A DNA stretch of 50,354 nucleotides, taken from the sequence record MH051911; one strand, given 5' to 3'. Positions 7,276-30,205 of this stretch are shown here, piece by piece. How positions within the stretch are numbered: the stretch's first letter is position 1; each line of letters begins with the position of its first letter. The DNA is from Enterobacteria phage vB_EcoS_IME18. The notes beneath the pieces were generated by a model. It saw nothing but the letters and a program-made list of their open reading frames with translations, was not told the DNA's origin and did no database searches. Both the position numbers and the translations under genes were made by a program.

Positions 7276-7619
7276 TATTTACCTCCACCAAATGAGAAGT
7301 TAACATCTAAAACCTGATTGCAAACCGACTCCATGTATCGCAACTGATATTGAGCAACCTTTGAAGGACTTAATTCATCGGTAAATAAATCCTCAACGTT
7401 GATTTCTTTTTTATGCTTGCGCTTCCATGCCTTGATGATATTTGGCAAGATGCGTTCGCTTTTCCATGCTGCGAACTCAGCTTGATTCGTCGATACTGGT
7501 GTAATCTGCCTGTCGATCTGGTTAAGCAATTCAGCCGTAGCACCTTTTACGTGAAGCTGTTCACCAATCGTGTCCAGGAGTTCGCGCGCTTGTTTATCTG
7601 ACAAGTTAATCGTAATCAT
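7275..7619 (-). CDS. hypothetical protein
   Basis: 114-aa ORF; start/stop overlap with neighbours. Confidence 0.5.
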   Translation of the reverse strand: MITINLSDKQARELLDTIGEQLHVKGATAELLNQIDRQITPVSTNQAEFAAWKSERILPNIIKAWKRKHKKEINVEDLFTDELSPSKVAQYQLRYMESVCNQVLDVNFSFGGGK

Positions 7620-7825
7620 GCCTCTTCTCCTTCTTCTTCGATCGGTGTAAAGAACTGAGTGTTCACTGCCGGGTTATAATAAACTCCGTCATCATAGTCG
7701 CTTTCTTTCACTTCGATAAAAACGTCGCAACCGTCATGCATGAAATCACCATTATCAGTATGAACAAGCTCGAATACTTCAGAGGTTTTAGTGCAGGTGA
7801 AAAACTTATCAGTTGATACCATCAT
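7616..7825 (-). CDS. hypothetical protein
   Basis: 69-aa ORF; first gene downstream of box at 7886..7900. Confidence 0.5.
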   Translation of the reverse strand: MMVSTDKFFTCTKTSEVFELVHTDNGDFMHDGCDVFIEVKESDYDDGVYYNPAVNTQFFTPIEEEGEEA

Positions 7826-7885
7826 TTCGATTTTCTCTCTTCGTTGTCGATGAGGTAACTATATCAAATCACCCCATCGACGTTT

Positions 7886-7900
7886 TAGCAATTCGTGCTA
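7886..7900 (-). promoter_or_regulatory. palindromic box TAGCA-N5-TGCTA (promoter-associated)
   Basis: TAGCAATTCGTGCTA; on minus strand TATAGT lies exactly 22 nt downstream (7859-7864); overlaps stop codon of kinase gene. Confidence 0.6.
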
Positions 7901-8470
7901 TTTATTGATGAACGTGGCGGCTATGTGCTGAGCGGTAATTTCTGGATGACCTTCGACAGAAAAGAAGTCACATTCCTGATAACCGTTAACCCCGATCATG
8001 TAGTCAAGATAGATATAGTCGCGGCTGTCGTTATCAAAGCTGCAACCTTTGCGATGTATGCGGCATAGCTTGACCTGGATATCACCTTCAATCATTTGCA
8101 AGATCTCATCTTTGAATCCACCATCAGTAAATACCGAAAGGGAGTGCGACTCTTTCACCTTGCTTTCCGCTCGCATACCGAAAAAGCGATTGCCGAATTG
8201 CGGCTTGATGACCTCTTCACTAATCCAGATCATAAACTGGCGTGGGCTTTTACCGTTCAGGATTGATGCTGGCTCTTCTTTATATCGACGGTCCTCATAC
8301 AAGAACATGAAATACTCGTAGTTAGCTTCACCCAGGATTGCTCGGGCAATCTCAAACATTGGCGCTTTGAAGCTGCGCAAGGCTACGTGATCGTAAGTGT
8401 CAGCAAGGATGCATCCGATAGTGTCTTTTCCCGCTCCAGGTGCGCCGTTTAAAATGATAGCTGTTTTCAT
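7898..8470 (-). CDS. P-loop kinase (polynucleotide kinase-like or dNMP kinase-like)
   Basis: Walker A GAPGAGKDT at N-terminus; LNGKSP motif; adjacent to PNK-type phosphatase gene. Confidence 0.65.
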   Translation of the reverse strand: MKTAIILNGAPGAGKDTIGCILADTYDHVALRSFKAPMFEIARAILGEANYEYFMFLYEDRRYKEEPASILNGKSPRQFMIWISEEVIKPQFGNRFFGMRAESKVKESHSLSVFTDGGFKDEILQMIEGDIQVKLCRIHRKGCSFDNDSRDYIYLDYMIGVNGYQECDFFSVEGHPEITAQHIAATFINK

Positions 8471-8578
8471 GTTAGTATCTCCCTAAAAATAATTTTGCCA
8501 CATTGATGATAGTGTGATTGATGATTAACAGGATGATAACCGTCAATACCGGATGTGCTGCAATAAATTCGTACAGGT

Positions 8579-9190
8579 TCACTTCAATAACTCCTTGCAC
8601 TTAATACATATTTTATCGCCAAATGGCGGTAGCGGCTCAGATGGTTCATGATTGCAAACCTCATCTACGCCATGAGATTTTAAATGATCGTGAATTTTAT
8701 CGCCATAGTCAACTACGGCATACGTTGTTATTCCAAGCGAGCGGAATAATGGAATAATCTGCGGTGAGTCATCCCAAGCTGCCAGGATGTTCTCAATACC
8801 GATCGCGCGCACCGCCTCTTCTTTCATTACCGTGTCTTTGCGGTTGTCGGTGTGCGGCCTCATGACCAAGTAATCATATCGAGCGCCGTGATGCTTAAGC
8901 CATAACTCAGATGCGTAACGCACCTCATCACTTCGCCCGGTTAAAATTATTACATGATATCCAGCGGCAAACATAGAGTTCATCACATCGATCGTGCTTT
9001 GGATAGGGTTGTCAAATATTGCCGAGCGGTTAAACTCGGACCAGCTTTCAGTTAAGTGCAAATCCTTTGTCGGTAGCAGGTGAAGTCGACCAGATCCATC
9101 GCTAAGTGTTCCATCAAAGTCAAAGATTGCTACGCGGCGCGTGCCGAGAAACAGATTGATTGCCTGGCCCCAAATTGTGATTTTATCCAT
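8579..9190 (-). CDS. HAD-family phosphatase resembling polynucleotide kinase 3'-phosphatase domain
   Basis: DxDGT motif FDFDGTL, ILTGRS, DNRKDTVMKEEA resembling T4 Pnk phosphatase segments (from memory). Confidence 0.65.
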   Translation of the reverse strand: MDKITIWGQAINLFLGTRRVAIFDFDGTLSDGSGRLHLLPTKDLHLTESWSEFNRSAIFDNPIQSTIDVMNSMFAAGYHVIILTGRSDEVRYASELWLKHHGARYDYLVMRPHTDNRKDTVMKEEAVRAIGIENILAAWDDSPQIIPLFRSLGITTYAVVDYGDKIHDHLKSHGVDEVCNHEPSEPLPPFGDKICIKCKELLK

Positions 9191-9258
9191 GATTTATTCC
9201 TCTGATTGGTTGCTTAACTCAATGAAGGGCATTCTATCAAATGCCCTTGAGCAAGTTT

Positions 9259-9273
9259 TAGCAATTCGTGCTA
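9259..9273 (-). promoter_or_regulatory. palindromic box TAGCA-N5-TGCTA (promoter-associated)
   Basis: TAGCAATTCGTGCTA; TAGAAT 22 nt downstream on minus strand; hairpin AAGGGCAT/ATGCCCTT in spacer. Confidence 0.6.
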
Positions 9274-9720
9274 TTACCAGCAATCGACCTCGTAGTCAGC
9301 CCAAGCGTCAAAATCACTTTGGCAGAATGTGCCGCTATAATTTTCCATCATTTCATCGATCAGGAAGTAGCACGACTCACCGTTACGATAGAAGTATGAA
9401 TCAGCAACGTTACGCGCCCAGCGCCCAGCATCTTTCTTGCTCATCTTCCAGTATTTCATTGCAATTTTCTTGAATGCGCGAACAACGCGTTTGCGGATCT
9501 TTATATGCTTGTACACAGCGTTGCAGCCGTAGGCCATATATTCGTTATCGCCAAGATTCTGCATAATGTACGGATTTACTTCTCTTGACGTAATCATCAG
9601 ATCGCCATCGCCGCGACGCTCATCATAAATACTTGCTGTCATGTAGTGACCTCTGAACATTCCGATGCCGTGAAGAGTGTATTCATCGTTAGGCGTTTCA
9701 ATGCAAATTAAGTGTTTCAT
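9274..9720 (-). CDS. hypothetical protein
   Basis: Start reassigned to ATG 9718-9720 with SD GAGGAAG; 148 aa. Confidence 0.5.
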   Translation of the reverse strand: MKHLICIETPNDEYTLHGIGMFRGHYMTASIYDERRGDGDLMITSREVNPYIMQNLGDNEYMAYGCNAVYKHIKIRKRVVRAFKKIAMKYWKMSKKDAGRWARNVADSYFYRNGESCYFLIDEMMENYSGTFCQSDFDAWADYEVDCW

Positions 9721-9777
9721 TAGTGCTTCCTCGTTTGTTGGTGTAGGGGAATCATAGCGCATTCCCCTTGATAGGTT

Positions 9778-9996
9778 TTAGCAATTCGTGCTATTCGTTT
9801 TAATAGTAATGCAAAAATAATTTTTTAAGCACGTCACCACGCGCGCTGAATCGACTTGTGGGAGCCTTAAAACCTCGCTGACCAATTGCACTGCCGACAC
9901 CTCAGATTTGTAGTAGTGGGCGATTCTGGAGCTATTTGGGCGCATTCCTTCCACTGCGTCGCGTGCTGCATCTTCTGCTGTCATGATAGTAGCCAT
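9778..9996 (-). CDS. questionable ORF, hypothetical
   Basis: 72-aa ORF whose 3' end reads through the palindromic box; weak SD; may be non-coding. Confidence 0.25.
   Translation of the reverse strand: MATIMTAEDAARDAVEGMRPNSSRIAHYYKSEVSAVQLVSEVLRLPQVDSARVVTCLKNYFCITIKTNSTNC
9779..9793 (-). promoter_or_regulatory. palindromic box TAGCA-N5-TGCTA (promoter-associated)
   Basis: TAGCAATTCGTGCTA; TATGAT 22 nt downstream on minus strand. Confidence 0.55.
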
Positions 9997-10144: not shown

Positions 10145-10783
10145 TTACATGATGAACATCAGCGAAATCGAAGCTACCAGGAGAACAAGCGCAACAGCCA
10201 GGCCGGATAAATCCGCTTTCTCTTCAAACTTCAATGCTGGCTTGCGGTCAACTTGTGACGCCTTGACGCTGTGGATCTTGTTTGCTGCAACCTTGCCTTT
10301 AACGCAGAAAGTGCGCTTACGCTTCTTGCCGAACGTTGCAAACTTAGTGCCGCCGCTATTCCATCTCAGACCTTCGCCATTGTGCGTTACGGTAGCAATG
10401 CGGTGACGCCCCGTGTCGTCAGTAAGCGCTACAGTGTGTTTTGCGTTCTCGGTCGGCGCTTCGTAAATATTGCCAACAGTAAATTTTTTGGTGTTATCGC
10501 TGATACATTCGAATTTCATAAATTTTACCTCTTTATTATGCAGTTGGTTGATTGCTTCGATTACGTCGTTAAATTTAACACCATCCACGATTCGATGGAA
10601 GATGTATTTTGAACTATTGCCATACGGCAGGAATATCTCCTGGTATTCGTGACGACGGACAATGTTCACGTTGCAACCGTTCTCATCAGTAATGATGAAG
10701 CTGTCATCATTTACGCGAACACCTTTGTAAGTTTTTCCCCACTTAAAACCAGATCCGCTACTTGATACGCACTCAAATTTCAT
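10145..10783 (-). CDS. membrane-anchored protein with tandemly duplicated domain
   Basis: Two internal repeats each starting MKFEC(V/I)S...; C-terminal hydrophobic segment LSGLAVALVLLVASISLMFIM. Confidence 0.5.
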   Translation of the reverse strand: MKFECVSSSGSGFKWGKTYKGVRVNDDSFIITDENGCNVNIVRRHEYQEIFLPYGNSSKYIFHRIVDGVKFNDVIEAINQLHNKEVKFMKFECISDNTKKFTVGNIYEAPTENAKHTVALTDDTGRHRIATVTHNGEGLRWNSGGTKFATFGKKRKRTFCVKGKVAANKIHSVKASQVDRKPALKFEEKADLSGLAVALVLLVASISLMFIM

Positions 10784-11067
10784 GGTCTAACCTTCCTGTA
10801 AGGCTTGATTGATAACATCACGTATTGCGTGAAGTCGCATCCTTGATCGTCATACCCGCGATTGATGTATGGCGTCACGTCTGTAACATCGGACACCCTG
10901 GCGTGAACTTCCCACCCGGTAAACTCGTCACGTTCGAACTCGCGTAGCTCAAGGATATCACCAACCTGGAAGTTTCGGTCATTGACGCGGAACTCTGCCG
11001 TTTTGGTTCCGTTCATTACACCAATGAAATGTACCGGGGCGATTTTTAACTTATGAGTTTTGCTCAT
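10780..11067 (-). CDS. hypothetical protein (possible ASCH/DUF3850-like fold)
   Basis: 95-aa ORF, SD GAGGTAAAG; family assignment is tentative recollection. Confidence 0.45.
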   Translation of the reverse strand: MSKTHKLKIAPVHFIGVMNGTKTAEFRVNDRNFQVGDILELREFERDEFTGWEVHARVSDVTDVTPYINRGYDDQGCDFTQYVMLSIKPYRKVRP

Positions 11068-11257: not shown

Positions 11258-11325
11258 AGCTGATTCCTCTGATTGGTTGCTCTGCTTCAATAAGGCCACT
11301 ATATCAAATGGCCTTGCGGAAGGTT

Positions 11326-11340
11326 TAGCAATTCGTGCTA
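11326..11340 (-). promoter_or_regulatory. palindromic box TAGCA-N5-TGCTA (promoter-associated)
   Basis: TAGCAATTCGTGCTA; TATAGT 22 nt downstream on minus strand. Confidence 0.6.
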
Positions 11341-11487
11341 TCGTTTAACGCACATTGTTTTAACTTCGTACCCGAACGGCTTATTCTCTGCAATTACTTC
11401 CCGCGCCTTGTTGCATGATTGCTGACTTTCCATGTATACGTGATCAGGCCCGGTACTCATCAAGATAATCAAGATCCACGCAGCCAT
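11338..11487 (-). CDS. hypothetical small protein (49 aa) with hydrophobic N-terminus
   Basis: ATG overlaps upstream stop (TAATG); stop TAG lies inside box; not in ORF track. Confidence 0.4.
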   Translation of the reverse strand: MAAWILIILMSTGPDHVYMESQQSCNKAREVIAENKPFGYEVKTMCVKR

Positions 11488-13600: not shown

Positions 13601-13666
13601 GGTGATTCCTCTGATTGGCATCTCGTTTCAATGGTGTAACTATATCAAGATACCCCGATCCGGTTT

Positions 13667-13681
13667 TAACAATTCGTGCTA
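13667..13681 (-). promoter_or_regulatory. palindromic box (promoter-associated)
   Basis: TAACAATTCGTGCTA; TATAGT 22 nt downstream on minus strand. Confidence 0.6.
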
Positions 13682-14149
13682 TTTGGTGAGATATTTCACA
13701 CGGCTTCCGGCAGTCTCATTCCAGCCATCCTCAAAGAATACGCTATAGCAAGTTGTCGAACGCTGGCGAACCTTCGACACAGTGCGCCACACTTTACGGC
13801 CCGAGTAACCAGTCAGCACACGCATCCCTGGCAACAACTCACCAGACTTTCTCACCTTAATGGCAACATCAGCATCAAGCTCGAACGACTCAAGATAGAC
13901 CGGGTTAATCATATTGCACATGCGGCGCTCTTCGTGCTCATCTGCCCACTCGCAGCCATTGTTCGTCTTGATAGCTCCAATGAAGCAACCCAGTTTTTCA
14001 GTAAGTGAGCCTGCGCGGTATGAGTTGATATCGATGACCGTGTAATGGCTATACATATGCCAGTGCAATCCGGTTTTGTGCTCAAACGCGAAGAATGACA
14101 TTTCGCCATCAACCTCATCTTTAGCCAGAAATACGGTAATTGTCGTCAT
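13679..14149 (-). CDS. hypothetical protein
   Basis: 156-aa ORF; stop TAG inside box. Confidence 0.55.
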   Translation of the reverse strand: MTTITVFLAKDEVDGEMSFFAFEHKTGLHWHMYSHYTVIDINSYRAGSLTEKLGCFIGAIKTNNGCEWADEHEERRMCNMINPVYLESFELDADVAIKVRKSGELLPGMRVLTGYSGRKVWRTVSKVRQRSTTCYSVFFEDGWNETAGSRVKYLTK

Positions 14150-23107: not shown

Positions 23108-23122
23108 TATCAATTAGTGCGA
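23108..23122 (-). promoter_or_regulatory. degenerate palindromic box (promoter-associated)
   Basis: TATCAATTAGTGCGA; TATAGT 22 nt downstream on minus strand. Confidence 0.45.
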
Positions 23123-24265
23123 CCCTGTCATTTCTGGACGATAGATGAATCGACCGATTTCACCAAACTGCTTATCGTAAACAATTACCGCCGCCTGGCG
23201 ATATGAGCGCCACCCTCCGCGTGCTGCGTATGCATCTTTCGCGCCTAACTGACCGTGTACTTCATCAATACCTAGCGAGTGCTCAGTGATTGTCTGGTGA
23301 TGCCAGTGCCCGCTATGAGTATACACATACTTGCTCTCGCCGAAATCCGATCGGAAATCTGCTGCCATCGCTGCAAGTCGCGTGTCTGCCTTTTTCATAG
23401 TGTGCCCGTGAGTGTATCCCAACAAGGTATTTCCCCAACGAGTCTTATGCAGAATCATAGGACTGACGTCAACGAATACTCGCGGCTCGTCTTCATAGTA
23501 TGCTGCCATTGCTGCGCGTAACCAAATCATCCCGGCCTGGTCGTGGTTTCCTTCGATAACCTGAACTTCGACCTCTTTGTGTTTCGTCAGCATTTTGTCT
23601 ATAGCTCGTCGCACCGATCGAATCGCTACATGCACCAATTTAGCATATCGTGAATCCTGATCAAGAACGTGACCACTTGCCGGGGTAACTGCATCAAGTC
23701 CGTCAGAGTGAAGGAAGTCGCCGCCGATTAACAGAACAGCCTTCTCTGCGTTCGGGGCAATATCGATCGCGTAGTTAAAGAAGTCATTCAGCACTTTTTC
23801 CGCTACGTCTGTAGAGTAGTTCTCTCCGCATTCATGCTTGTGAGCAAGCGCGCCAATGTGAAGATCGAACACCGGGTATAGTGCCAGCTTGCCAATAGCG
23901 GTTGTAAGCCCTTGCGATGTGAGTAGCTCAGTTAGTTTTGCTCGCGGCAAGTCTTCACAGAATGCAATACGCGCTGCTTCCATCATTGCCGCAATCTTCT
24001 CACGGTCCTGATCGGTCTTAACCCATCGCACTACCTCGGTCCCATCTCCGCGAATCATCGTTGATGTGCCTTTTACCATGAATCCTTCCGGTACGTTCTT
24101 AGCAACATGCTCGTTGCCGTGGAAGTGTCCTTCTTTTGCCAATTTTGCGTGGCGAGCCTCAACAGTGCGAATGTGCATACCGTACTTTTCCGCGATCTCG
24201 CGAAGTGTCAGGCCTTTCATGCGTTCTTCGACAAGTTGCTCGGTAGTGATTTTAGCTTGTGACAT
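23114..24265 (-). CDS. HTH domain-containing calcineurin-like metallophosphoesterase
   Basis: N-terminal HTH-like LTLREIAEKYGMHIRTVEARH; metallophosphatase motifs DLH, GDFLHSD, GNHD, GHT, GHWH. Confidence 0.6.
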   Translation of the reverse strand: MSQAKITTEQLVEERMKGLTLREIAEKYGMHIRTVEARHAKLAKEGHFHGNEHVAKNVPEGFMVKGTSTMIRGDGTEVVRWVKTDQDREKIAAMMEAARIAFCEDLPRAKLTELLTSQGLTTAIGKLALYPVFDLHIGALAHKHECGENYSTDVAEKVLNDFFNYAIDIAPNAEKAVLLIGGDFLHSDGLDAVTPASGHVLDQDSRYAKLVHVAIRSVRRAIDKMLTKHKEVEVQVIEGNHDQAGMIWLRAAMAAYYEDEPRVFVDVSPMILHKTRWGNTLLGYTHGHTMKKADTRLAAMAADFRSDFGESKYVYTHSGHWHHQTITEHSLGIDEVHGQLGAKDAYAARGGWRSYRQAAVIVYDKQFGEIGRFIYRPEMTGSH

Positions 24266-30128: not shown

Positions 30129-30169
30129 GGCCATTGCAAGACTCATAGCACAATGATAAAATCAGTGCT

Positions 30170-30184
30170 TAGCAATTCGTGCTA
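30170..30184 (-). promoter_or_regulatory. palindromic box adjacent to tail fibre RBS
   Basis: TAGCAATTCGTGCTA about 20 bp upstream of tail fibre ATG; oriented opposite to that gene; a degenerate forward copy lies at 30146-30160. Confidence 0.4.
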
Positions 30185-30205
30185 TTTACTTAAGGAGTTT
30201 ATACT

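Follow-up and report, generated by a model that had tools for sequence, protein, structure and literature searches.

The known phage enzymes closest to the products of the locus analyzed here include two of T4, a dNMP kinase (gp1; PDB 1dek/1del) and a polynucleotide kinase-phosphatase (Pnkp, or PseT; PDB 1ltq/5uj0). Host-DNA salvage in T4 combines the gp46/47 metallophosphoesterase (MPE) nuclease with gp1, and the T7 nucleotide kinase gp1.7, working with the gp3 and gp6 nucleases, is a functional analogue in which host-DNA breakdown is coupled to a phage dNMP kinase; gp1.7 lacks a P-loop and is unrelated in fold, and the T7 system includes no phosphatase. Outside the phages, yeast Tpp1 and plant ZDP are HAD 3'-phosphatases related to PNKP with no attached kinase, like the phosphatase studied here, and both are eukaryotic DNA-repair enzymes. 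Nucleotides from degraded host DNA are reused by the T1-like phages T1 and TLS; according to the authors of the TLS study, the responsible gene products have not been identified (PMC11447400). In phage KanT1, a "PNK" and a dNMP kinase were suggested to extend the replication module and thereby enhance nucleotide supply (PMC13164509). Both the phosphatase and the kinase are already annotated in relatives, and a nucleotide-supply role has been proposed (PMC11447400, PMC13164509); a cross-lineage three-gene module, natural fusions, an equivalence with NT5C-type enzymes and a coupled micro-ORF are added here. Literature searches on the phosphatase and kinase gave genome-annotation papers, and no functional study or biochemistry was found for either subfamily.

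The window, i.e. the whole stretch of 50,354 nucleotides from Enterobacteria phage vB_EcoS_IME18 (record MH051911), comprises essentially the whole genome of a T1-like (Tunavirus) phage, since its ORFs of at least 230 aa all match (16/16) functions assigned in LeonhardEuler, a 93%-identical annotated relative: terminase, portal, capsid, tail, RecE-like exonuclease, primase, two helicases, Dam methylase and metallophosphoesterase. The 2.2 kb around the locus are 92-94% identical to the corresponding region of >60 Escherichia/Shigella Tunavirus (Drexlerviridae) phages, with matching gene order. The two ORFs of the preliminary description were recovered exactly where it had placed them, on the minus strand (Table 1), and the hundreds to thousands of homologues in the phosphatase and kinase families mark them as real genes rather than chance ORFs. 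They are indeed separate genes, as it had stated, but the 108 bp between them are not intergenic, being filled by an ORF of 36 codons. The GTG start of this micro-ORF overlaps the phosphatase stop codon (GTGA) and is preceded, 8 nt upstream, by an AAGGAG Shine-Dalgarno sequence, while its stop lies one base ahead of the kinase ATG. Judged by this sequence layout, the phosphatase, micro-ORF and kinase form one translationally coupled unit. The micro-ORF is annotated in LeonhardEuler as bas13_0075, and its few close variants, a small sample, show 10 synonymous differences and 4 non-synonymous ones. Its product is hydrophobic and membrane-like, with a single helix, and is specific to the Tunavirus clade. 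Small ORFs that separate the MPE gene from the kinase gene in phiR8-01, VP17802 and PS3 have no homology to it; two of these unrelated micro-ORFs at the equivalent spot, phiR8-01 g028 and VP17802_00041, share a YxxW/HWxxKG motif with each other. In the same early block as the three-ORF unit, ~1.6 kb upstream of it, a DUF3850/ASCH-domain protein (PHROG_986, "RNA-binding protein") is encoded.

Table 1. Coordinates of the features discussed, given for the window unless a contig is named.
Feature	Position	Strand	Details
Phosphatase ORF	8579..9190	minus	203 aa, ATG start; T1p64 orthologue
Variable phosphatase C-terminal tail	8579..8662	minus	aa 177-203; CxH...CxxC
Micro-ORF	8472..8582	minus	36 aa, GTG start
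Kinase ORF	7898..8470	minus	190 aa, ATG start; T1p62 orthologue
HTH-metallophosphoesterase (MPE)	23114..24265	minus	383 aa; PHROG_704, 5e-156
DUF3850/ASCH-domain protein	10780-11067	minus	95 aa
Palindromic repeat ATAGCACGAATTGCTAA	7882..7902	minus	overlaps kinase stop codon
Palindromic repeat ATAGCACGAATTGCTAA	9255..9275	minus	just upstream of phosphatase gene
Further ATAGCACGAATTGCTAA copies	9775-9795, 11322-11342, 13663-13683, 30166-30186	minus	
P0219 fusion gene	L093, 6001-7212		followed by MPE homologue, PAPS-reductase-like gene and Dam methylase
NT5C-type HAD 5'(3')-deoxyribonucleotidase (Vequintavirinae)	L094, 4600-5193; L095, 4578-5192		directly downstream of kinase
Phage P1 homologue of phosphatase	L098, 2459-2965		among pmg genes

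The kinase motifs reported earlier are present (NGAPGAGKDT, aa 8-17; LNGKSP, aa 71-76), and profile comparisons place the protein with gp1. It matches PHROG_139 "dNMP kinase" (1e-45, profile positions 82-260), on which T4 gp1 covers the same region (1.8e-65, positions 83-261), whereas T4 Pnkp, unlike both, falls in PHROG_505. With hhalign, 74 columns are aligned to gp1, the identical hexapeptide LNGKSP included, compared to 21 P-loop columns only for T4 Pnkp; LNGKSP thus reads as a signature of gp1 and not of Pnk. Searches of the PDB with the single sequence and with a 25-sequence profile gave generic P-loop matches (AAA+ ATPases, adenylate kinases) and missed 1dek, so that a structure comparison was needed, whose top match is T4 gp1 (1dek). 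Named proteins among the top 50 BFVD structural neighbours are mostly dNMP kinases, no Pnk appearing among them, and one neighbour is a fusion with nucleoside 2-deoxyribosyltransferase. Pfam and NCBIfam contain no model for this kinase subfamily.

The resemblance to gp1 is distant, with ~13% identity in the structural alignment between 190 aa in the window kinase and 241 aa in gp1, and a gp1 insertion at roughly residues 96-131 is missing. Using the residue roles tabulated for gp1 (PMC10653934), a local HMM alignment pairs kinase R77 with R132 (dNMP phosphate) and M80 with M135 (sugar) of the dNMP site, and likewise D116 with D175 and E122 with E181, the alignment as a whole being remote. The gp1 residues K14, D15 and T16 are all kept, as K15, D16 and T17, and R68 and K37 are probably kept as R61 and K35, which were mapped by manual inspection across a shift of one or two residues. 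Differences are found at gp1 R177 and R11, which are replaced in the remote alignment by Gly118 and Gly12, and at H206, replaced by Arg150. The best-supported assignment of the 7898..8470 product is by family a dNMP kinase of the T4 gp1 type, with predicted conversion of dNMPs to dNDPs, and this assignment is firmer than the role inferred for the phosphatase. The alternative that the preliminary description itself had offered, in which the kinase is a dNMP kinase and the pair serves nucleotide pools, is the better supported one in view of the shared PHROG_139 membership and the 1dek match. The other half of its interpretation, a split Pnkp working with an RNA ligase, is not supported, given that the kinase aligns to T4 Pnkp over the 21-residue P-loop only and that no ligase is encoded; the locus is not a Pnkp divided between two genes.

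The phosphatase, in contrast to the kinase, does belong with Pnkp. The segments FDFDGTL, LTGRS and DNRKDTVMKEE are confirmed, and the likeness to the phosphatase domain of T4 Pnkp is borne out by Pfam PF25109 HAD_PNKP (score 61.1 bits, gathering threshold 27.6, E 1.7e-16; residues 20-159) and by matching catalytic residues. The protein also matches PHROG_415 (5.6e-66); its best solved sequence relatives are Capnocytophaga Pnkp1 (4xrp) and T4 Pnkp, hhalign places its family profile on residues 151-297 of T4 Pnkp (97% probability), and its fold is closest to solved Pnkp phosphatase domains. The DxDxT motif D24/D26/T28 (FDFDGT) is invariant in 23/23 family members, and D24 and D26 correspond to T4 Pnkp D165, the Asp nucleophile, and D167, the general acid/base. 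Likewise, T84, R86, D119, K123, D140 and D141, invariant or nearly so among the 23 relatives, correspond to T4 Pnkp S211, R213, D254, K258, D277 and D278 (for the roles of D165, D167, S211, K258 and D278, see PMC3592404). An additional invariant residue, R35, is probably the equivalent of R176 according to phmmer and hhalign, its placement by MAFFT being different. In T4 Pnkp, R176, R213, D254 and D277 were reportedly found to be essential by mutagenesis in 2007. The 8579..9190 product is, by family, a stand-alone Pnkp-type HAD 3'-phosphatase with predicted 3'-phosphomonoesterase activity. The preliminary description had set two groupings against its own proposal, the kinase with dNMP kinases and the phosphatase with generic sugar phosphatases; the former was observed, and the phosphatase grouped with Pnkp instead.

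Several features distinguish this phosphatase from its solved relatives. Unlike the T4 domain and Capnocytophaga Pnkp1, it stands alone, without a Pnk-type kinase domain or a partner ligase; compared to T4 Pnkp, its insert after motif I is longer and highly conserved (R35-N54: RLHLLPTKDLHLTESWSEFN), and it bears an optional Cys/His tail at the C-terminus. The tail of 27 residues is missing from the 176-aa T1 orthologue. In the relatives compared (P0101, P0117, P0119, P0120 and P0134), the consensus is CxH-x(9-16)-CxxC, the Cys/His spacing being kept in several relatives and the tail being duplicated in P0120, while P0192 and P0202 have an unrelated extension of ~60 aa in its place. The predicted model of the tail consists of two short strands (pLDDT ~70-76). 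This segment may form a small, putatively zinc-binding knuckle for nucleic-acid or partner binding, and it loosely resembles the zinc fingers of ZDP.

The association between the two genes was assessed in 80 IMG/VR kinase loci, mostly of Drexlerviridae. The phosphatase is located upstream on the same strand in 71 of them and downstream in none, and it is adjacent to or overlaps the kinase in 42. Owing to the predominance of Drexlerviridae in this set, cross-lineage cases weigh more, and the overlapping phosphatase-then-kinase order recurs in Kagunavirus (K1ind3), Autographiviridae (Ahp1) and the Pseudomonas siphovirus PsgS01F. The two could conceivably be mere neighbours with unrelated roles, in keeping with a T1 early region that is a mosaic of small genes, with the 9/80 kinase loci in which no phosphatase occurs within 5 kb, and with phiR8-01 and PS3, which contain the MPE and the kinase and lack the HAD phosphatase gene entirely. 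Yet this is highly improbable in view of the strict order and strand in 71/80 loci, the stop/start overlaps in three other phage lineages and the fusions, described below, on several independent contigs. Gene order in the 80 loci and across lineages, adjacency of the MPE and the fusions together indicate that the phosphatase and the kinase are functionally linked.

The MPE, phosphatase and kinase genes are contiguous in 28/80 IMG/VR loci as well as in K1ind3, Ahp1 and PsgS01F. The MPE immediately upstream in these cases has an N-terminal HTH and matches PHROG_704 "DNA repair exonuclease" or PHROG_221. Its counterpart in the window is encoded 14 kb away from the phosphatase and kinase genes. 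It shares 45% identity with K1ind3 ORF20 and combines an N-terminal LuxR/FixJ-like HTH with a calcineurin-type metallophosphoesterase domain that carries the motifs DxH, GD..H, GNHD, HGH and GHxHH. Searches of the window MPE against the PDB and Pfam gave no significant match; sub-threshold hints point to a FixJ-type HTH (E 0.17) and to Thermotoga SbcD/Mre11 (E 0.6), and the designation as a putative exonuclease comes solely from PHROG names. The HTH-MPE is a probable third partner of the pair. In the Autographiviridae phages Ahp1 and phiR8-01, the gp1-like kinase is found within a block of exonuclease, endonuclease VII and MPE genes. A PADLOC search with the kinase, phosphatase and MPE gave no match.

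Further context is provided by nucleotide-metabolism genes, beside which kinase orthologues of 36-39% identity are located. In Vequintavirinae, the same kinase subfamily adjoins an NT5C-type HAD nucleotidase, ThyX, thymidylate synthase and RNR, and in Aeromonas phage 4_4572 the kinase adjoins nucleoside 2-deoxyribosyltransferase and RNR. In a Krischvirus, a stand-alone homologue of the Pnkp-type phosphatase overlaps the end of nrdB. The Vequintavirinae arrangement, with a HAD phosphatase beside an orthologous kinase in a cluster for dNTP synthesis, points to an equivalent role, although the HAD gene lies downstream of the kinase there and upstream in the small phages. The NT5C type is a different HAD subfamily that gives no significant hhalign match to the window phosphatase family, and the pairing is therefore analogous, not orthologous; the NT5C enzyme looks like a non-orthologous replacement of the Pnkp-type partner.

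The best explanation of the locus, and one considered reasonably probable as a whole, is a three-ORF early operon on the minus strand (9190 -> 7898, in the order phosphatase, micro-ORF, kinase), in which the phosphatase-kinase pair would act as a nucleotide salvage or pool module feeding phage DNA synthesis, rather than in tRNA repair. In this scheme, one or more nucleases would release nucleotides and oligonucleotides from host nucleic acid, and the phosphatase would strip 3'-phosphates from 3'-phosphorylated ends, 3'-dNMPs or 3',5'-bisphosphates, leaving either 5'-dNMPs that can be used or substrates for exonucleases. Conversion of 5'-dNMPs to dNDPs by the kinase, and of dNDPs to dNTPs by host NDK, would follow. 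Salvage is supported by the nucleotide-metabolism neighbours of the kinase subfamily, the conserved gene linkage, the missing ligase and the reuse of host DNA by T1 and TLS. The phosphatase step is the weakest link, because no nuclease of T1 or E. coli is known to yield 3'-phosphate products in bulk. Also counted against salvage are the low identity between the kinase and gp1, the Gly residues at the R177 and R11 equivalents and the distance of the window MPE from the pair.

The NT5C substitution also suggests a variant with no link to nucleases, in which the HAD protein would be a 5'(3')-deoxynucleotidase that removes certain mononucleotides (e.g. dUMP, or ribo- and non-canonical NMPs), while the kinase pushes wanted dNMPs forward, so that dNTP pools are biased and host DNA is not recycled. 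Such pool shaping is quite unlikely here. The invariance of the Pnkp-clade residues R86 (R213), D119 (D254) and probably R35 (R176) favours Pnkp-like 3'-phosphate substrates, the frequent adjacency of the MPE nuclease is better suited to salvage, and a futile cycle would result from the fusion of a 5'-nucleotidase to a dNMP kinase unless the two specificities were disjoint.

Such fusions do occur. A library-wide profile search recovered 5094 representative kinases, among which P0219, P0351 and P0235 carry HAD_PNKP at the N-terminus and the gp1-like kinase at the C-terminus. These three are encoded on phage contigs of roughly 45-60 kb, P0219 on three contigs of up to 60 kb, and their linker of 65-110 aa carries a conserved GPELHG motif. 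The MPE homologue beside the P0219 fusion gene on contig L093 is 44% identical to the window MPE. The characterized kinase and 3'-phosphatase fusions known to us are all end-healing enzymes, and for this reason the fusions could point away from salvage. In an end-healing role, the HAD 3'-phosphatase and the gp1-like kinase would convert 3'-P/5'-OH to 3'-OH/5'-P termini as a non-orthologous analogue of Pnkp, the MPE would trim the ends and a host ligase (LigA for DNA) would seal them, either to counter host nucleases or to repair phage DNA. The T4 Pnkp catalytic set retained in the phosphatase, the frequent neighbour named "DNA repair exonuclease" with its HTH, and the fusions themselves, in which the phosphatase is N-terminal to the kinase as in mammalian PNKP, are all consistent with this role. 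It is nevertheless unlikely in light of the ancestry of the kinase, the missing ligase and the dNTP-cluster contexts.

A more general proposal, which is tentative and somewhat doubtful, is that the HTH-MPE, the phosphatase and the gp1-like kinase constitute a widespread uncharacterized pathway into which the kinase was recruited to share the nucleic-acid-derived substrate of the phosphatase. This shared substrate could be 5'-OH/3'-P ends, in which case the module would be a second, independently evolved Pnkp, with reversed domain order in its fusions, or it could be 3',5'-bisphosphate nucleotides that are channelled straight to dNDPs.

A role in tRNA repair was considered separately and rejected. 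As had been noted at the outset, no ligase is visible in the window, where the ORFs of at least 230 aa are all otherwise assigned and a tblastn search with T4 RnlA finds nothing; the same search across the 80 module loci gave no match. No Pnk-type 5'-OH kinase (GxxGxGKS P-loop, downstream general-base Asp, Arg contacts) was found, either fused or as a partner. Finally, removal of 3'-phosphates would work against host RtcB, a consideration that weighs against end healing as well.

The names given to these proteins in databases deserve comment. Orthologues of T1p64 are labelled "polynucleotide kinase", "3'-phosphatase, 5'-polynucleotide kinase" or "putative morphogenetic protein", and the kinase is called "phosphomevalonate kinase" in some records. 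All of these labels are misleading; the two that mention a polynucleotide kinase are attached to a protein with no kinase domain. The "putative morphogenetic protein" label probably derives from the "putative morphogenetic function" (pmg) naming in phage P1, whose homologue of the phosphatase, presumably pmgT, sits among pmg genes. The protein phosphatase Ppp of P1, encoded nearby, is itself a metallophosphoesterase. The present analysis corrects the widespread "polynucleotide kinase" label. If the salvage reading is true, the locus names part of the enzymology by which the host chromosome is turned into the DNA of T1-like phages. The conserved module with its rare fusions offers a concrete and cheap test of whether a kinase of the gp1 fold can work on polynucleotide ends.

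Repeat elements accompany the locus. A scan of 7600..9500 for sigma-70 promoters and terminators gave sites no more numerous than in shuffled sequence. The element ATAGCACGAATTGCTAA, which contains the palindrome TAGCA-N5-TGCTA, is present in the window in six copies of the same orientation, where none are expected, and these occupy intergenic gaps among the leftward early genes; the copies at 9255 and 7882 bracket the three-ORF unit. Five copies, all except that at 30166, were examined for flanking structure. A hairpin whose loop contains an extended -10 box resembling TGnTATAGT is located ~20 nt downstream of the copies at 9255, 9775 and 11322; the stem is weaker at the copies at 7882 and 13663. 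The stems vary by compensatory changes (AAGGGCAT/ATGCCCTT, AAGGCCA/TGGCCTT and GGGGAAT/ATTCCCC). The record of phage SA32RD has terminators annotated at equivalent positions; the ATAGCACGAATTGCTAA elements could instead be operator-promoter or RNA-processing sites.
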